Source of the DNA: an uncultured Candidatus Saccharibacteria bacterium
Lineage (GTDB): Bacteria > Patescibacteriota > Minisyncoccia > Phycocordibacterales > UBA2100
DNA: 64,000 nucleotides
Direction of reading: 5' to 3'
Assembly: GCA_964424265.1 (NCBI GenBank)
Contig: CAYRHX010000001.1
Location: 128,498 to 192,497, forward strand
Position numbers and translations under genes: made by a program. The first letter of the stretch is position 1. Each line of letters opens with the position of its first letter. Below, piece by piece: positions 16,986 through 64,000 of this stretch. Below the pieces are notes generated by a model. It was not told the origin of the DNA and searched no databases. It saw only the letters and a program-made list of their open reading frames with translations.

Positions 16986-18293
16986 TCACCCCACCTCCCC
17001 CAAGCTTGGAATACCCAAGCGGCGGCGGGAGGTTTCGCCTTTAAAAAGGGTGCGTGTGCGCTCAGGTGTGTCTCCGCGATCGCCAAGGTACGCACCGAAG
17101 CGCATGGCATCAAAGCTTGAACCAAGAAAGACAGCATGCTTACCATACCGACGCGAGATATTATCGACACTCTCATACACCTTTTTTAGCCCTTCTGATT
17201 TTAGTACCGACCCGAAGAGATCGAGTTGCGCACTACCCGCGTCGTGCAATTTCATGAGGGTGATGCCGGTCGCACGGTACTCCGTGCGTTGTCGAAAGAC
17301 TTTTGGAAAATACTCGGATACCACTTTCAAAATATCTTGCGGCACTGAGGTCGCGTGCGAGAGTTTGATTTCGTATCCGTGATACCGAAAATCTTGTGTT
17401 TTGAGAAAAAAGAATATTTCGCGCGTCGCGAGGTTCCACCGACGCGCCTTGATGCAAGCATTCTCGACATTTTTAGAAAGCTGAGAGAAGACGAACTGCA
17501 GATCGCGCGATGGCGGCGTAAACGTTTTGGTTTTTTGGATGGATTGGTAGCTCTTGCGCCCTGTTGTGTCGAGCTCATATACCACTTCCCCATTGATCTC
17601 CCGCCATATTTCCACGTAGGGTTTCGAGAGGTTTGCGCGCACCCACTCTTCGTCTTTGCGCGCAAGCTGAAGCGCGGTGCGTATGCCAAATTTCTCGAGA
17701 TACGCGGCCGTATTTGATCCAATACCCCACAAGTTGATACACGGAGTTTTCGCGAGATACTGCTCTGCGTCGCGTAGCGGAATAATCGTGAGCCCCGCGG
17801 GCTTCTTCCACTTAGAGCCAATCTTTGCCAACACCTTCGTGGCAGAGACACCGATGGAGAAGGTCATGCCGAGCTCGCGTTCGAGATCGCGCTGCATCGC
17901 TTCGGCGATTTTCGGATATGGCATGTGATGCACGCGCCGGAGGCCCGTGAGGTCAGCAAAACATTCGTCGATCGAATATTCTTCGACCGCGGGCGTGTAA
18001 CGGCGCACGATCTCATACATCCGATGCGAAAAGAGACTGTACGTCTCATAATCCGACGGCAATATGATCGCATCGGGACACGCCTTCAGCGCCTCGCGAA
18101 GCGAGACTCCACGCTTCACCCCCCTCGCCTTTGCTTCGTACGTGCACGCCGATACAATCCCCCGCTCTTTCCCCGTGATCACGGGCTTTCCTCGTAGACT
18201 CGGATTTTTCGCAACTTCGCACGACGCAAAAAAAGAATCTCCATCGATGTGCAAAATCGCTCTTGGTAGCGAATGTAAGTTTCCCCAGGACAT
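16986..18293 (-). CDS. dinB: Y-family DNA polymerase IV
   Basis: ILHIDGDSFFASCE (catalytic Asp motif), SIDECFADLTG, little-finger domain. 435 aa. Confidence 0.85.
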   Translation of the reverse strand: MSWGNLHSLPRAILHIDGDSFFASCEVAKNPSLRGKPVITGKERGIVSACTYEAKARGVKRGVSLREALKACPDAIILPSDYETYSLFSHRMYEIVRRYTPAVEEYSIDECFADLTGLRRVHHMPYPKIAEAMQRDLERELGMTFSIGVSATKVLAKIGSKWKKPAGLTIIPLRDAEQYLAKTPCINLWGIGSNTAAYLEKFGIRTALQLARKDEEWVRANLSKPYVEIWREINGEVVYELDTTGRKSYQSIQKTKTFTPPSRDLQFVFSQLSKNVENACIKARRWNLATREIFFFLKTQDFRYHGYEIKLSHATSVPQDILKVVSEYFPKVFRQRTEYRATGITLMKLHDAGSAQLDLFGSVLKSEGLKKVYESVDNISRRYGKHAVFLGSSFDAMRFGAYLGDRGDTPERTRTLFKGETSRRRLGIPSLGEVG

Positions 18294-18393
18294 ACGTACA
18301 GTGTTTTGACTTTTACGAGTTGTCTAGTATTATTCCTGTACAAATGCCTTCGGGCTTGCCCTTCTCGAAAGAGAAGGGAGAAAGAGGAAGCCG

Positions 18394-18786
18394 TTAGAGC
18401 ATGTCTCTGACGGCTTTTCTCACACGATCGAAAATATCTTCTTTCATGTTTTCAATCTTACGGTCCAGACGTTTCGTATCAATGAGTCGTATCTGAGAAA
18501 TGATAGCGGATGCTTTTCGACTTCCTACCGTCCCAATAGGGACATAGTACTGATTCCGTTTGGCAGAAGTTGTAAGCGGCACAACAAGACAAACCGAACG
18601 ACTAAAAGCTTTGAGAACCAATACTGGCCTGGCTCGGTGCAAGCCCGACCCATCTTGTTCGAAACCAACATTTACACCAAGCTGACACCAGCGAATATCG
18701 CGCTCATGATACAAGAGCACATCACTACGAACATTGATTCTCTTCTTCTGTTCATTCCACCCATCAAAATCCTTCTCCATATTCAA
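18394..18786 (-). CDS. PemK/MazF-family endoribonuclease toxin homolog
   Basis: ERDIRWCQLGVNVGFEQDG..RARPVLVLKAFSRSVCLVVPLTTSAK...SQIRLIDTKRL aligns with Kid/MazF conserved blocks. Start codon overlaps the lexA stop (ATGA). Confidence 0.7.
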   Translation of the reverse strand: MNMEKDFDGWNEQKKRINVRSDVLLYHERDIRWCQLGVNVGFEQDGSGLHRARPVLVLKAFSRSVCLVVPLTTSAKRNQYYVPIGTVGSRKASAIISQIRLIDTKRLDRKIENMKEDIFDRVRKAVRDML

Positions 18787-19361
18787 TACTTCCGCACAAC
18801 CGCCGTGACAACAGCTTCGACGCGAAACGATTCTTTTGGATAGATCGGTTTGTATTTTTTGTTGGCAGGCTCTAGGTAAAAATCATTACCTTTTTTACGG
18901 AGGTATTTCATCGTGTATTCATTATCAACACTTGCGATAACGATTTGCCCCGGTTTGTATGAGGCTTTGCGCTCTACGATTACCATATCCCCTGGCTGAA
19001 TGCCCGCATCAACCATCGAATCACCCTTGACCTTGAGGATGTAGCTCGACTCTTTGTTGGGGGTGAGGTATTCGTCGAAATCTATGACGTCAAGAAGCTC
19101 CTCTTCCGCAGGCGAGGGAAATCCCGCTTCGACCAAACCAAGGAGCCGAGACCCCCTATCAAATAATCTGGCAAAAGAACCGGGCGATAACCTTCCTCGC
19201 GCATCTTTTCTGACCACTCCATCCTCGACAAGTTTACCGATAAATTTGAACACAGCGTTCTTGGATCTAAAACCCGTGAGTGCCATGATCTCTTTGTATC
19301 CGGGCATACGCCGATGCTTCTCATAAAACGCCGACAGTTTGTTTTTATATTCCTCATACAT
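18783..19361 (-). CDS. lexA: LexA repressor (wHTH + S24 peptidase)
   Basis: 192 aa. Blocks RMPGYKEIMALTGFRSKNAV, LGLVEAGFPSP, KVKGDSMVDAGIQPGDMVIVERK (Ser nucleophile) and the catalytic Lys region. Collinear with E. coli LexA. Confidence 0.9.
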   Translation of the reverse strand: MYEEYKNKLSAFYEKHRRMPGYKEIMALTGFRSKNAVFKFIGKLVEDGVVRKDARGRLSPGSFARLFDRGSRLLGLVEAGFPSPAEEELLDVIDFDEYLTPNKESSYILKVKGDSMVDAGIQPGDMVIVERKASYKPGQIVIASVDNEYTMKYLRKKGNDFYLEPANKKYKPIYPKESFRVEAVVTAVVRKY

Positions 19362-19375
19362 TACTTTCAGTGTAG

Positions 19376-19391
19376 TGAACTATGGTTCACC
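19376..19391. promoter_or_regulatory. putative LexA (SOS/Cheo-type) operator GTGAAC-TATG-GTTCAC upstream of lexA
   Basis: Perfect 16-bp palindrome of GAAC-N4-GTTC type, 15-30 nt upstream of the lexA start codon. Confidence 0.6.
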
Positions 19392-19486
19392 TGTCAATCC
19401 GCGCCCTGTGGATAAGACCCCCACAAGACGCCTTGAAAACAAAAGACCGCTCGTGAGCGGTCTTTTGGGGATTCACGATTTCTTCC

Positions 19487-19642
19487 CTACTCCCCCTCTT
19501 CGATCTTCGAACGATTCGTCGGGCACTTCCTTCCACACCCCTTGCACGACCCTCCACCGCCTGGCGTACACGTGCTGTGTTCGCCGCAATCACATTCACT
19601 TTCATTCATACAATTATTGTGACGGCTGATAATTGCACTCAT
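19487..19642 (-). CDS. hypothetical small Cys-rich peptide (7 Cys in 51 aa)
   Basis: MSAIISRHNNCMNESECDCGEHSTCTPGGGGSCKGCGRKCPTNRSKIEEGE. No clear SD. Downstream of the DUF3298-like gene. Speculative. Confidence 0.25.
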   Translation of the reverse strand: MSAIISRHNNCMNESECDCGEHSTCTPGGGGSCKGCGRKCPTNRSKIEEGE

Positions 19643-19670
19643 GATACGCTCGCCAATAACTCTGTAAAGA

Positions 19671-20360
19671 CTATTTCTTGCGTTCAAATGAAATCGTCTG
19701 TGGCCCCGCAACGTATGGCGCGACTTGGTACGGCTGGAAAATGAATGTCACCGTGTCCGCGGATATCAGAAACGAGCTAAAATTTCCTGAATTAGAATCT
19801 GCTCCATCGGGAAAGAACACATCGCCAAGCCGCTCCTCAAGCTGCGCCGTCGCGGCAACCGAGACTTGCTTGAGCGTGAGACCAATCATGCGAAGCGCAT
19901 CATCGAGCACAAGCTGTCGCCCGGTAGCCTTGTCGAAGTTTAAACCGTGCGAGAGCGAATTTGGATGCGCGCCACCTGTGTACTCTGTATGAACGATCTC
20001 GACCGAGACAATATCAGGGCCGATGTAGGGGGTGTCGAAGTCGAGAGTGAGTTCGAGTAGAGGCGATGCCATGTCGGGAGGATTAGCTGTCAGGGTCTTA
20101 AATTCTTTAACAATTTCGTTCACCACCTTTTCAATCTTTGGATCAATCGTGACAATCCCAAACTTTGGGTACTTCACATCTATCGAATGCGTCGCTGTCA
20201 CCTCTTTCATCTCCATTGTCGTAAACGGCACAACGGCAACCTGTGGCGTCGTGGTCGCAACGAATGATGGCCTCGATGCGGGTATTGTGAGTATCGAGAG
20301 ATAGTATCCGGCCCCCAGCGCCAACGTCGCCACCAAAAGGTATGAGAAGAAACGGCCCAT
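19671..20360 (-). CDS. membrane-anchored DUF3298/DUF4163-like (RsiV-like) protein
   Basis: N-terminal TM then beta-rich extracytoplasmic domain. Family call by overall resemblance only. Confidence 0.45.
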   Translation of the reverse strand: MGRFFSYLLVATLALGAGYYLSILTIPASRPSFVATTTPQVAVVPFTTMEMKEVTATHSIDVKYPKFGIVTIDPKIEKVVNEIVKEFKTLTANPPDMASPLLELTLDFDTPYIGPDIVSVEIVHTEYTGGAHPNSLSHGLNFDKATGRQLVLDDALRMIGLTLKQVSVAATAQLEERLGDVFFPDGADSNSGNFSSFLISADTVTFIFQPYQVAPYVAGPQTISFERKK

Positions 20361-28302: not shown

Positions 28303-31136
28303 TGATACAACGACGAAACATCGGGGAGATCGAGCCCCGCTGGTGCGTCAGGCTTCTTGCCATACGCCGCGTCAAACTTACGACGCGTTTCCGCTTCCAC
28401 CTCTTCCCTGTCTTTACCGTACGTGCGATACGAAAGCTCCTTCATCGCGCCGAGATGGTCATAATTCATTTTCGGTAGTTCTTGGGTCTGAATAGTGAAA
28501 GGGCGCGCGGGTACGCCATTTACCAAGAGCGAGAGTACCGCATTACGGTTGGGCAAATTCTCGAGATCTTGCGCGGTGAACGTCGGGGTAAATTGTTTCT
28601 CCAAAAATTCGGCATCAGTGGTGCCGATGCGGAACGCTGCTTTGGTACCGACGTTGCCCACGACCGCGTCCCGAATGTCTTCTTCGAGCTGCGCGATAAA
28701 TTGGTGCGCGATGGTGAGTGAGAGTTTGTATTTTCGAGCTTCGGAAAGAATCGTTGCGATAGAAGGCGTGGCGAAATTTTGAAATTCGTCGATATAGAGA
28801 TAGAAGACGGGCAATAGATCGCCTCGTGTATCCACGCGAGAAAATGCGGCTTGTAAAAATTTGGACACGAGAATGAGGCCGAGAAGCGAAGTGTTGCGAT
28901 CGCCTAGACGACCCTTGGAAAGATTCGCGAGGAAAATCTTTTTTGAGTCCATAATCTGCCGGAAATCGAACGCGGATTTTTCCTGGCTTACAATCGGGCG
29001 CATGATGTCGTTTGTCAAAAAGACGTCGAATTTACTGGTGATGTACGGGGCGACGTTTTCAAGTGACGGATCTCCCTGCGCCTGCTCGGCAATTTTGCGC
29101 CAGAATTGAACGATGATTGGGTTGTTGCAGTGGCTAAGCTTCAGATTACGAAATGCCGTGTCGGCAAAGACGCGTGGAATCTCGACAAACGTGCTTCCCG
29201 TGTCGGGGTCTTCAACGACGAGCTGAACGGCATTGCGGTAGTATTGCTCAAACATCGGTCCAAACGCTTCGGGCACATCGGCGTACAGTTTGCGGAAAAT
29301 ACCGTATACTTCGTCGACGACAAACGTCTTCATCTCGGGCTTTGTGCGATCATACTCAAGCATGTTGAGGCCCATGGGGCGCGCAGTGTATGCGGGATCA
29401 AAATAGATGACATCCTTCATGCGCTCTGGCGGCACGCACGCAAGCACATCGTCGATGTCGTTGCCGTGCGGATCGATAAACGCGACACCCTCGCCATTTT
29501 TGATGTCTTGAATAATCATATTTTTGATGAGTCCAGTCTTTCCGGTACCTGTCTGTCCTATAACGTACGCGTGACGCAAACGATCGGAGGTGCCAAAACG
29601 CACCGGTGTCTCATCTGCGCCGTATTTATTTATTCCGATTATTATGCCCTCCGCGGGAGTTTCAACGGGTGCGGGAGCTTGCTTCGCAAAACTGCGCTTG
29701 AGCTCCCGCGATGAAGTGAGGCGCTCTGCGGTAAAGTGGAAAATCGAAGTAACTTCATTGAGTGAAAGTGGCATGGCGATTGCACTATCAAATGATCGAT
29801 ACGTGAAGTCGCGAAGGAAATCATCGAGCCCCCAGCTTCCGACTTTTTTAAAGACAAAATGATTTCCTTTCGGATCATCGTATTGACTAAATGGTGCCTC
29901 GAGGTTGCTGACCAGCTCCTCGGCGCGCTCCTTCGTGGGGGCGGAAGCAACAAGCCGGATGGAAACAGGCGCTATACGCGATTTTACCTTGCGAGTAATG
30001 CCTTCGGTCGTGACCTGATCGGACGTGCGACGAAATTGCTTATCTATTTCTTCTTTGTGTTTGCTGGGCGTAAATATCTGCTGAGCGAGAATCTTCACCG
30101 CCTCTCCAATCTCCGACTCTGGCACCTTAAGTGCTTTCTCAAAAATTTTCCCCTTTTCGAGTTCGCGAAGAATCTTCTTGTAGTGATGATTGTAGCGGTC
30201 ACCCTCGGTGGAAACGGTAATCTGGAGCGCCGCGCCTTCCCCATGCTTTGCGAGCTTCGCAAACGCAGCAAGTAGTACGTTCATCGGATCGCGCTCAAAC
30301 ATCTCGGGAGTCTTGAGAGGGAGCGAGGGATGATTTGAGAGCGTCGCATAGGATGCAGCGTGCACTCCGTCGTAATTAAAGATATTGTAATCCCCCCGCG
30401 ACTCCGATATACGCGCATTTGGAAATACCGATGACATGAGTCGTTCGGCAAGGATCTTTTTCGCACGCGGTACCGCCAAATATAAATACGCAGCTTCACT
30501 ACCTTCTTGCACCGCTATTTCGAGTGAGAATCCTTCTCCTTTCTCGATGAGCGTCACGAGGCCGGCATAGAGTTGTTCAGACGAGGAGAGCAGTTGCTCC
30601 AGTTTGTGTTGTTGGCTGTCTTGCTTGTCGCCTTCTCCGTGTGCCTGAGGCTGAATCTCAAAAAGGACCATGTGAAGGGCCCGTTTCACTTTTTCAGGGA
30701 CCCCCATCCCCTTGTCCGGTAGACCCTCGGAAATGTAACTCACGAGCGCTCGATGTATGTCGTCCTCGAGATGCGGATTTTTCAGACGCGCAGCCACTGA
30801 GAGCGCATTGCGTATACCTCGCTGCATTACAATATTGAGGATTCCATCCACTTGCTGGTCGTGTGTCTCGGGTTCAAGCTTGAGAACATTCCTCAAAATA
30901 TCGTGCTCCGCCATCACGACCGTCTCATGCAAAATAGTTGCCGCTGGCGTGTCGGCATATGAGGCAACCTCCCGCCGCGCGATGCGATCGCTCTCGAATC
31001 TGTTTTTGGGCGCTTCCATTTCGGCCTCCTTCTCGCGCACTCGCGCGCGCAAATAGGCCAACTCCTCTTCAGGAGATTTAAACTTCTCTAAAACCGCTCC
31101 ACCAGCGGGCCGCGGCTTCTCCATCAAGGGAGGCAT
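28299..31136 (-). CDS. large P-loop ATPase, HerA/FtsK-VirD4 superfamily (DUF87-like AAA domain) with ~480-aa unknown N-terminal region
   Basis: Walker A RHAYVIGQTGTGKTG followed by FIDPHGNDID; Walker B YLYIDEFQNF. No N-terminal TM. Confidence 0.6.
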   Translation of the reverse strand: MPPLMEKPRPAGGAVLEKFKSPEEELAYLRARVREKEAEMEAPKNRFESDRIARREVASYADTPAATILHETVVMAEHDILRNVLKLEPETHDQQVDGILNIVMQRGIRNALSVAARLKNPHLEDDIHRALVSYISEGLPDKGMGVPEKVKRALHMVLFEIQPQAHGEGDKQDSQQHKLEQLLSSSEQLYAGLVTLIEKGEGFSLEIAVQEGSEAAYLYLAVPRAKKILAERLMSSVFPNARISESRGDYNIFNYDGVHAASYATLSNHPSLPLKTPEMFERDPMNVLLAAFAKLAKHGEGAALQITVSTEGDRYNHHYKKILRELEKGKIFEKALKVPESEIGEAVKILAQQIFTPSKHKEEIDKQFRRTSDQVTTEGITRKVKSRIAPVSIRLVASAPTKERAEELVSNLEAPFSQYDDPKGNHFVFKKVGSWGLDDFLRDFTYRSFDSAIAMPLSLNEVTSIFHFTAERLTSSRELKRSFAKQAPAPVETPAEGIIIGINKYGADETPVRFGTSDRLRHAYVIGQTGTGKTGLIKNMIIQDIKNGEGVAFIDPHGNDIDDVLACVPPERMKDVIYFDPAYTARPMGLNMLEYDRTKPEMKTFVVDEVYGIFRKLYADVPEAFGPMFEQYYRNAVQLVVEDPDTGSTFVEIPRVFADTAFRNLKLSHCNNPIIVQFWRKIAEQAQGDPSLENVAPYITSKFDVFLTNDIMRPIVSQEKSAFDFRQIMDSKKIFLANLSKGRLGDRNTSLLGLILVSKFLQAAFSRVDTRGDLLPVFYLYIDEFQNFATPSIATILSEARKYKLSLTIAHQFIAQLEEDIRDAVVGNVGTKAAFRIGTTDAEFLEKQFTPTFTAQDLENLPNRNAVLSLLVNGVPARPFTIQTQELPKMNYDHLGAMKELSYRTYGKDREEVEAETRRKFDAAYGKKPDAPAGLDLPDVSSLYQ

Positions 31137-62966: not shown

Positions 62967-62988
62967 TGGCTCGAACCTTTGTTCGAAA

Positions 62989-64000
62989 TTAAGCAACAAC
63001 TTTTGTTACTACACCTGCGCCTACCGTTTTTCCTCCTTCGCGAATGGCGAAGCGCATCTGATCTTCGAGTGCGATTGGAGCAACCAATTTCACTTTGAAG
63101 GTGACGGTGTCGCCTGGCATAACCATCTCCACTCCCTCCTTGAGCGTTACCTCTCCGGTAACGTCTGTGGTGCGAACGTAGAATTGTGGTTTGTAGCCAG
63201 TGAAGAACGGTGTGTGACGACCGCCCTCTTCCTTGGTCAAAATGTAGACTTCGGATTCGAATTCGGTGTGCGGCTTCACTGAGGCTGGCTTGCAGAGCAC
63301 TTGTCCGCGGTGCACATCTTCTTTCTTTGTGCCGCGGAGAAGCACGCCCGCGTTGTCGCCTGCCTGACCTTGCTGGAGTGATTTGTTGAACATTTCGACA
63401 CCGGTGACTGTCGTCTTCGCCGTATCCTTGATACCGACGATTTCGATTTCTTCACCAACCTTCACGACGCCGCGCTCAATACGGCCCGTAACAACGGTGC
63501 CTCGGCCTTCGATCGAAAACACGTCTTCGATGGGCATAAGGAACGGCTTGTCGAGTTCACGCACTGGCTGTGGGATGTATTCGTCGAGCGCTTTCACAAG
63601 CTCCATGATCTTTGCGCTCCATTCATTGCCTGGCTCAGGCGACTCAAGCGCTTTCAAGCCAGAACCTCGGATGACCGGAGTATTTTTGCCGTCAAAGCCT
63701 TGCTTCTCGAGGAGCTCGCGGATCTCCTCTTCGACGAGATCGATGAGGTCTTTGTCGTCCACCTGATCTACTTTGTTCAAGAATACGATGACCTTGGGCA
63801 CTCCCACCTGCTTTGCAAGGAGGATGTGTTCACGCGTCTGAGGCATCACGCCGTCGGACGCTGCGACCACGAGGATAGCGCCGTCCATCTGGGCGGCACC
63901 CGTGATCATGTTTTTAATGTAGTCGGCGTGTCCGGGAGCGTCGACGTGCGCGTAGTGACGAGCTGGCGTCTCATACTCAGAGTGCGAGAGCGAAATCGTA
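62989..64000 (-). CDS. tuf: elongation factor Tu (3' portion; N-terminus beyond the window end)
   Basis: [34 protein letters not shown]...; domains II/III of EF-Tu. The ORF runs off the window end. Confidence 0.9.

Follow-up and report, generated by a model that had tools for sequence, protein, structure and literature searches.

How is a toxin of the MazF/PemK fold held in check when no antitoxin gene lies beside it? This question is raised by a 64,000-nucleotide stretch of DNA (here called the window; contig CAYRHX010000001.1, positions 128,498 to 192,497) from an uncultured Candidatus Saccharibacteria bacterium, in which an open reading frame (ORF) of this family stands between lexA and dinB. 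More than 50% of the toxins in the largest families are 'solo', and RNA antitoxins have been suggested without examples (Makarova et al. 2009, PMC2701414); the restraint of solo toxins has been an open question since at least 2009. The locus offers a concrete and testable case, with a delimited 80-nt RNA that shows covariation and accompanies every copy of the toxin subfamily. On balance, we favour the reading that it is an SOS-inducible, type I-like toxin-antitoxin (TA) module, composed of a MazF-fold toxin and a convergent RNA of ~80 nt that would act as its antitoxin. The initial annotation had offered two other readings: an SOS-induced effector held off by LexA repression alone, or a LexA that doubles as the cognate antitoxin.

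The MazF/PemK-fold gene and its neighbourhood

The gene lies in the window as follows:

18394..18780, minus strand: gene of a predicted MazF/PemK-fold endoribonuclease, 128 aa, PF02452; start fixed by homologs, no promoter of its own here

The ORF that follows lexA matches the Pfam family PF02452 (PemK_toxin) with 50.3 bits, above the cutoff of 23.1 (E 3.2e-13, residues 30-130). It is a distant member, since the NCBIfam MazF equivalog model gives it 24 bits against 120, and its sequence matches in the PDB are weak, with B. subtilis YdcE/MazF at E 0.003. An AlphaFold2 (AF2) model was obtained with a mean predicted local distance difference test score (pLDDT) of 74.6, in which the N-terminal 40 residues are poorly modelled. 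The top Foldseek matches of this model in the PDB were all MazF proteins; the best, 4me7 (E 2e-6), superposed with an rmsd of 2.3 Å over 102 columns and a target-normalised TM score of 0.72. In the HMMER alignment R53 and T72 of the toxin (130-aa numbering) fall on R25 and T48 of YdcE, the equivalents of R29 and T52 in E. coli, and both positions are invariant among 26 family members. The protein also carries an N-terminal extension of ~28 residues (KDFDxWNxxKK). We conclude that the ORF is predicted to encode an intact MazF-fold RNase, which would be toxic.

The initial annotation had described a Kid/MazF-like protein of 130 aa, whose start would overlap the lexA stop by ATGA. The family stood, supported by the profile, the fold and the Arg/Thr pair, whereas the length and the overlap did not. 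The ATG at 18780, which gives 128 aa, is the start in all homologs (M-x-KDFD), and the junction reads ...TAT TGA AT ATG GAG..., with a 2-nt spacer. The sole start that would overlap the lexA stop, as TTGA, is a mechanical TTG start at 18786, from which 130 aa are read.

The subfamily to which the toxin belongs comprises 806 protein clusters, nearly all of 128-130 aa, and its members are mostly unnamed or labelled Patescibacteria, Kaiserbacteria, Yanofskybacteria or Minisyncoccia. At least 564 confirmed toxin loci were found in the species-representative genomes of the Genome Taxonomy Database (GTDB). Their contexts are unrelated to one another, and include glycosyltransferase clusters, restriction-modification systems and a gene with a weak match to a PD-(D/E)XK nuclease domain, among others; tandem duplicates of the toxin and several copies per genome also occur. 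Four GTDB contigs with the module (loci are designated by L and a number; here L023, L028, L029 and L067) are labelled as metagenome-assembled genomes of Chitinophagaceae, Bacteroidia, Nanoarchaeota or Bifidobacteriaceae, and could be mis-binned Patescibacteria contigs or cases of horizontal transfer. PADLOC gave no match for the toxin, a scan of IMG/VR found no relative of it, and in PHROGs it receives only the generic label 'MazF-like growth inhibitor'.

A type II (MazEF-like) system has a protein antitoxin gene adjacent to the toxin, and none was found here. The list of window ORFs contains no candidate protein antitoxin beside the toxin. When the nearest ORFs on both sides of ~85 related loci were clustered, no flanking ORF of at least 60 aa was recurrent, and no small antitoxin ORF of 20-110 aa was conserved within ±450 nt of the toxin loci. 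The absence of a MazE/PemI-like antitoxin ORF, already remarked upon in the initial annotation, thus holds for the window and for the ~85 related loci alike. The 'ORFs' that did recur were rejected as protein antitoxins, because they echo, in another frame or in antisense, the conserved DNA of the toxin and of the RNA described below, and their starts and stops are inconsistent.

A predicted convergent small RNA gene behind the toxin

What the toxin genes do share is found on their downstream side. Pairwise blastn of the flanks of toxin genes yielded 1524 matches downstream versus 10 upstream, and an element of ~100 nt, directly past the stop codon, is common to every toxin locus inspected. 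It reads on the strand opposite to the toxin as TTGAC(T/A), 16-17 nt, TAnnnT, then ~6 nt, ACAAAUG and GCC-UUCG-GGC, and continues with a variable stem capped by GCAA, GAAA or UUCG, an A-rich linker, a hairpin of 14-18 bp and a U tract. In the window its parts are:

18306..18333, plus strand: predicted sigma-70-type promoter of the small RNA, TTGACT (18306-11), 16 nt, TATTAT (18328-33); consensus scan 10/12, start at ~18340
~18340..18420, plus strand: candidate antitoxin small RNA of ~80 nt, with a 5' ACAAAUG tail, P1, P2, an A-rich linker and P3 (covariance model R1)
18346-18355, plus strand: stem P1 of the small RNA (GCC-UUCG-GGC)
18359-18378, plus strand: stem P2 of the small RNA (8 bp, GAAA loop)
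18384..18421, unstranded: P3, predicted shared bidirectional terminator hairpin (RNAfold), with the plus-strand U tract at 18415-18418; it holds the toxin stop codon (18394-18396)

The same three hairpins were obtained when each copy was folded separately. A covariance model, R1, was built from 14 copies of the small RNA. In the 64-kb window it found a single full copy (75.5 bits, E 7e-20), and it matched behind the toxin gene in 79 loci with E<1e-9, second copies of tandem modules included. Every toxin copy of the core family is accompanied by a convergent predicted small RNA gene. The linkage is strict: in 381 kb of lexA loci, R1 matched just the one locus that carries the toxin.

In the alignment of the 79 sequences 97.2% of the cells are paired, and both sides vary in 17 of the 22 pairs. 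Compensatory cells numbered 183, against 48±6 in shuffles, and none of 500 shuffles reached as high a count; when the 3' partners were shifted by 1-3 columns, pairing fell to 39-66%. This alignment was fitted to R1 and hence leans towards the structure, but the raw sequences still show a swap in P1 (GCC/GGC to GGC/GCC, in 24 sequences) and a P2 that is hypervariable and always paired. P3 has 14 pairs in the model, 12 of them in helix 3, where 98.6% of the cells are paired. The strand is indicated by the loops, with UUCG closing P1 in 72 of 79 copies and a GNRA loop closing P2 in 52 of 79, and by the mispairs: read on the plus strand, G.U outnumbers A.C by 108 to 22 overall and by 99 to 13 in P3. 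Upstream of the RNA, the flank alignment of 63 loci shows an invariant TTG in the -35 box, and the A that follows it and the TA of the -10 box are nearly invariant. The promoter pattern was recovered in 84 of 88 loci, a few of these matches not being the aligned box.

No family of Rfam 15 matched the window RNA at E<=10, and a near-consensus copy (L017) gave only sub-threshold matches to miRNA hairpins, which fell on the palindromic terminator. The hairpin that the initial annotation had placed before dinB corresponds to 18359-18378, that is, to stem P2 of the RNA on the opposite strand; the dinB gene itself was correctly named.

The position of P3 links the RNA to the toxin mRNA. Its 5' arm is antisense to the toxin stop codon and the first bases of the 3' untranslated region, and the last ~8 codons of the toxin (K-A-V-K-D-M-L) are covered, again in antisense, by the loop and the 3' arm. 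The RNA and the toxin mRNA would therefore share a bidirectional terminator and be perfectly complementary at their 3' ends. A separate antisense RNA gene that overlaps the toxin, as in type I systems, is thus present by prediction. The other mark of type I, a small hydrophobic peptide toxin (with exceptions such as SymE and RalR), is not seen, the product being a soluble MazF-fold protein of 128 aa. The tandem-repeat RNA that type III (ToxIN-like) systems carry upstream, on the toxin strand, is not found either: there is a single convergent RNA downstream, and the upstream flanks are unconserved.

Two further roles for the RNA were considered and rejected. Pairing in trans between its 5' half and the toxin 5' region (-40 to +60 of the start) gave a mean z of 0 against shuffles when analysed with RNAduplex in 61 loci. 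A conserved peptide is not encoded, since the ORF that begins MPSG.. or MASA.. runs for 7 to >29 codons, and no frame or stop is shared past P1. Nucleotides 5-7 of the RNA (window 18344-18346, plus strand), 4 nt from the predicted 5' end, are AUG in 47 copies, GUG in 26 and UUG in 1, together 74 of the 79, which amounts to a purine-UG constraint. In L021 (4481-4565, minus strand) and, more weakly, in L024 (2665-2747, minus strand) a second RNA copy lies past the first, and tblastn finds no second toxin gene there. The extra copy may represent an antitoxin RNA that was duplicated or orphaned, or else what is left of a module that decayed.

The lexA-dinB operon and the entry of the module

In the window the toxin and its RNA lie within an operon of SOS genes, whose features are:

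19361..18783, minus strand: lexA, 192 aa, winged helix-turn-helix (wHTH) and S24 self-cleaving domain
19392..19397, minus strand: -35 hexamer TTGACA of the predicted lexA operon promoter (consensus scan, 10/12 matches)
19375..19390, unstranded: predicted LexA (SOS) box GTGAAC-TATG-GTTCAC, an exact 16-bp palindrome that fills the 17-nt promoter spacer
19369..19374, minus strand: -10 hexamer TACACT of the same promoter, 7 nt ahead of the lexA ATG (19361)
19441..19466, unstranded: terminator-like hairpin (GACCGCTC..GAGCGGTC, flanked by A and T runs), read from the sequence, between the upstream gene and the lexA promoter
16986..18293, minus strand: dinB (Y-family DNA polymerase IV), 435 aa; IMS, IMS_C, IMS_HHH and NCBIfam Pol IV models

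The initial annotation had called the repressor gene a bona fide lexA and the palindrome ahead of it perfect, and both descriptions are borne out. In profile searches the protein matches Pfam Peptidase_S24 with E 1.2e-27 and TIGR00498 (lexA) with 107.6 bits over residues 11-191, just below the cutoff of 110.95; the Pfam LexA_DNA_bind model gave no match at E<=0.1. Its best sequence matches in the PDB are full-length LexA repressors, and the alignment, which reaches residues 26-197 of E. coli LexA, covers the wHTH, the Ala-Gly cleavage site (VEAG), the Ser (GDSM) and the Lys (TMKY). With the wHTH, the S24 domain, the cleavage site and the Ser/Lys dyad all recognisable, we regard the window lexA as genuine.

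The box is exact at 19375-19390, and no second site with at most 3 mismatches from GTGAAC-TATG-GTTCAC occurs elsewhere in the 64 kb. Of 80 homologous metagenome loci, 41 have a GAAC-N4-GTTC core upstream of lexA, and the 19 closest are all among these. The design recurs in L041, where the box TAGAAC-GTTC-GTTCTA also lies inside the promoter spacer before a leaderless lexA (-10 TACAAT, 6 nt, ATG). It is reasonable to read the window box as the predicted LexA site of an autoregulated SOS operon.

The toxin family often has a promoter of its own, also leaderless: a -10 element, often TG-extended, stands 5-10 nt before the toxin ATG in 32 of 70 family loci, versus 6% of controls. The window toxin has no -10 element before its ATG, because the lexA coding sequence abuts it, and would therefore be transcribed only from the LexA-controlled promoter. 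To this extent the proposal of an SOS-induced effector is reasonable; the part that assigned its restraint to LexA repression alone is not supported, given a dedicated antisense RNA gene with its own predicted promoter. The hairpin at 19441-19466 would mark off lexA, the toxin gene and dinB as a transcription unit of their own.

Several observations were made around this promoter. The lexA mRNA is apparently leaderless in the window (19359-19397, minus strand) and in L041 (960-1015), the -10 box ending 6-7 nt before the ATG; there is no Shine-Dalgarno sequence before lexA in either, and the LexA box takes up the entire promoter spacer. Upstream of lexA and of the hairpin at 19441-19466 lies a Cys-rich ORF of 74 aa (..CDCGEHSTCTPGGGGSCKGCGRKC..; 19487-19711, minus strand) with no Pfam match. 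In the near-identical contig L086 the gene caller chose instead an overlapping and probably spurious ORF of 72 aa (19605..19387), which crosses both the hairpin and the lexA promoter. A second GAAC-N4-GTTC of the window (62973-62984) lies by a terminator-like hairpin past the 3' end of an EF-Tu-like ORF (62989..63909, minus strand). It was rejected as a further SOS box, as it is without the GT/AC flanks and two sites per window are within the chance expectation of 1.18.

To see how the module came to stand behind lexA, related loci were compared. Relatives of the window LexA were found in 80 metagenome loci, 66 of which have at least 450 nt downstream. In 38 of these lexA leads directly to dinB, in 26 neither dinB nor the toxin follows, one (L092, an 86% relative) has the order lexA-toxin-dinB, and one (L170) carries a paralog of 34% identity. 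Approached from the toxin side, L041 alone among an initial set of 85 toxin loci is flanked by lexA and dinB; the clade of the window itself (L086-L090) joined the set later. The arrangement of the window is shared by its closest relatives, with toxins 99% and 86% identical, whereas the 76% and 74% relatives are arranged differently. In loci that lack the module the junction reads lexA-TGA-GTAT-ATG-dinB (L093) or TAG-TGT-ATG (L098), and in the window it reads TGA-AT-ATG (toxin), the module, and CGT-ATG (dinB). The comparison therefore places 487 bp (toxin and RNA) precisely in the gap that separates the lexA stop from the dinB start, and we conclude from these sequences that a 487-bp cassette entered the 3-4-nt junction of an ancestral lexA-dinB operon.

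Copies linked to lexA are confined to the window clade, L041 and the distant paralog L170, which amounts to at least three apparently independent lexA-toxin junctions. L170 has a diverged version of the whole module, RNA included, which begins at the lexA stop, and no dinB. Covariance model R2 found nothing in distant paralogs or in the plasmid homologs treated below, and the RNAs of L170 and of the plasmids were recognised only by eye. Relative to ~1-2 modules per genome of ~800 genes, lexA-toxin junctions look enriched; this is a rough estimate and suggestive only. Other lineages have short, unrelated inserts of ~70-315 bp in the lexA-dinB junction (L097, 2717-3032, with a 55-aa ORF; L099, 1735-1912; L095, 4064-4190; L096, 893-961), and small SOS 'cargo' genes may repeatedly have landed in this 3-4-nt junction.

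Mechanism, alternatives and known systems

On the reading that we favour, the small RNA would be transcribed and act as antitoxin, the protein would be toxic and the operon would be inducible by DNA damage. In the undamaged cell LexA would hold the toxin mRNA low, and the constitutive RNA would absorb the leak by pairing with the 3' end of that mRNA, leading to its decay and/or to a block of translation; interference between the convergent transcription events possibly assists. Upon DNA damage, RecA-stimulated self-cleavage of LexA would release a burst of lexA-toxin(-dinB) transcript that exceeds the capacity of the RNA, and the RNase set free in this way would arrest growth or remodel translation during the SOS response.

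Several points weigh against this reading. The RNA is predicted, as are its promoter and terminator. Since P3 is a palindrome that reaches into coding sequence, the terminator of the toxin mRNA could account for some of the conservation and covariation seen in it. Conservation in the 5' half of the RNA (ACAAAUG, P1) exceeds what a pure 3' antisense would need, and this half shows no conserved pairing to the toxin 5' region, which hints at another activity of the RNA, e.g., protein binding. The AF2 model of the toxin is only moderate (pLDDT 74.6) and poor over its first 40 residues. A bidirectional terminator before dinB should hamper the expression of this gene, and we have no explanation for it: dinB lies behind that terminator and a head-on small-RNA promoter, its ATG is 12 nt from the -35 box of the small RNA, and neither a consensus scan nor inspection by eye found a minus-strand promoter-like site for it in 18294-18393, so that dinB is presumably expressed by read-through. 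In the window the U tract of the sense strand is degraded (CUUCCUC), whereas the 86% relative L087 retains UUUUCUUUUU. Finally, the toxin is seldom linked to lexA (~1-3% of loci), and chance insertion, not adaptation, could explain the SOS wiring.

The alternative that survives best is a type III-like arrangement, in which the RNA binds the MazF-like protein as a pseudo-substrate or inhibitor, perhaps through the 5' ACAAAUG and the A-rich linker, and not the mRNA. MazF proteins bind single strands that contain ACA, and the type III toxin ToxN has a Kid/MazF-like fold. The conservation of the RNA would fit such a role, as the 5' half with ACAAAUG, P1 and its UUCG loop is nearly invariant among modules whose proteins are 50-60% identical, and no complementarity between this half and the toxin 5' region is conserved. 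However, known type III RNAs are tandem repeats located upstream on the same strand, whereas here one convergent gene is present and no repeats are seen in the small RNA, and a perfect antisense overlap at the 3' end is a hallmark of cis-antisense control. We consider the type III-like arrangement unlikely, with a chance that is small and still worth keeping in mind.

There may also be no TA pair at all. The protein would then be a tolerated housekeeping or RNA-processing RNase, the element mainly a bidirectional terminator or insulator with an unrelated small RNA (or the small RNA a substrate of the enzyme), and the position behind lexA neutral. The toxicity of the protein is indeed a prediction, the linkage to lexA is rare, PADLOC has no match, and many 'solo' toxin homologs are thought to have been exapted (PMC2701414). 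Against this, the module behaves as a TA cassette does, with variable locations, multiple copies per genome and tandem duplications, and the catalytic residues are invariant. The convergent promoter is more strictly conserved than the toxin's own, which points to control of the toxin, and Campylobacterota plasmid homologs have an analogous convergent promoter. The absence of a TA pair has, in our judgement, a slim chance of being the right answer.

That LexA is itself the antitoxin by binding the toxin, or that its transcriptional repression suffices, is very improbable: the 2-nt juxtaposition of the genes, the perfect box, lexA-toxin junctions in at least three lineages and the precedent of a transcription factor as MazF antitoxin (MrpC, the binding antitoxin of the solitary MazF of Myxococcus) speak for it, but lexA adjoins just 1 of 85 toxin loci (L041), so that the toxin family as a whole does without LexA, 38 of 66 lexA loci go straight to dinB and ~97% of lexA loci are toxin-free, the LexA has no MazE-like acidic C-terminal tail, and the window keeps a full RNA gene (75.5 bits) with a near-consensus promoter, which would be unexpected had LexA taken over. 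The solitary MazF-mx is mentioned in PMC2701414.

Returning to the module with an antisense RNA, we would tentatively extend the proposal as follows: the MazF-fold toxins of Patescibacteria, and probably their relatives on Campylobacterota plasmids, may be neutralised not by MazE but by a dedicated convergent small RNA that shares their terminator, and the cassette has been caught repeatedly behind lexA, where it would become an SOS-triggered RNase effector. If this is true, a hybrid of type I architecture and type II toxin exists in hundreds of species and explains a large class of 'solo' MazF proteins, and the RNA is among the first conserved regulatory small RNA families of the Candidate Phyla Radiation. 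The RNA would add a family absent from Rfam, in a group of phyla where regulation by RNA has hardly been explored, and type I-style control of a type II toxin fold would blur the divide between the two types. A tiny genome with a minimal lexA-dinB operon could gain a damage-inducible effector of growth arrest by a single 0.5-kb insertion, in parallel with symE/symR and tisB/istR. Annotation pipelines name these genes 'type II toxin' and overlook the RNA. In the literature searched, no description of the toxin and RNA module in Patescibacteria was found.

With MazEF, PemIK and Kid-Kis the window module shares the toxin fold, the Pfam family and the catalytic Arg/Thr, but its toxin has the N-terminal extension of ~28 residues, a convergent RNA gene and no protein partner. 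A TA module within a LexA-regulated dinB operon is known from E. coli, dinB-yafN-yafO-yafP; yafNO, however, is a protein-protein type II pair downstream of dinB, whereas in the window lexA precedes and dinB follows the toxin, whose candidate partner is an RNA. LexA-regulated RelE homologs are covered in PMC2814082.

The relatives on plasmids of Campylobacter (pVir), Helicobacter and Nitratiruptor are PemK-family proteins 33-35% identical to the window toxin, N-terminal extension included. They are annotated as 'type II toxin' with no annotated antitoxin (L172-L174). On pVir (L172, NC_005012, 30630-31160) the ORF occupies 30630-31034, has 134 aa and is 33.6% identical across 88% of the window protein; downstream of it lie a near-consensus promoter in convergent orientation, TTGATT-17-TATAAT, and hairpins antisense into its 3' end. 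On the Nitratiruptor plasmid, too, hairpins behind a convergent promoter extend into the 3' end of the toxin gene, and in Helicobacter the hairpins are clear and the promoter match is weak. R2 found nothing on pVir, and the plasmid RNA is not detectably homologous to that of Patescibacteria. pVir carries an experimentally validated type I TA system, cjrA/cjpT (Shen et al. 2016, as cited in PMC7826846 and PMC10470494). The pVir ORF is possibly CjpT and its convergent RNA possibly CjrA, which serves as a lead only; the context there is one of plasmid maintenance and not of an SOS operon. If the two are the same, the mechanism has a precedent and the module is a new and very large group of members; otherwise, the control of a MazF-fold toxin by a cis-antisense RNA would be new.

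Toxin mRNAs and convergent RNAs that overlap at their 3' ends are known in txpA/RatA and bsrG/SR4 of B. subtilis and in par (Fst/RNA II) of E. faecalis, which also shares a bidirectional terminator. The overlap predicted here is of this kind, and with par the shared terminator is common as well. Those toxins are hydrophobic peptides of ~30-60 aa, in contrast to the 128-aa MazF-fold RNase of the window, and par pairs through direct repeats at the 5' side, a kind of pairing that was not found here.

For the SOS wiring, the counterparts are the LexA-controlled type I systems symE/symR and tisB/istR-1 (PMC8167048), in which a toxin under a LexA box has a constitutive antisense or antitoxin RNA as a second lock, as proposed here. 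SymE is alike also in being an RNA-cleaving protein rather than a membrane peptide (PMC8167048), but it has an AbrB/MazE-like fold and not a MazF fold, and SymR covers the 5' end and ribosome binding site of symE; the RNA described here overlaps its toxin gene at the 3' end instead, by way of the shared terminator. In the window, unlike in these E. coli systems, the link to LexA would have come about by insertion into the lexA-dinB operon, so that the toxin is predicted to be co-transcribed with lexA itself.

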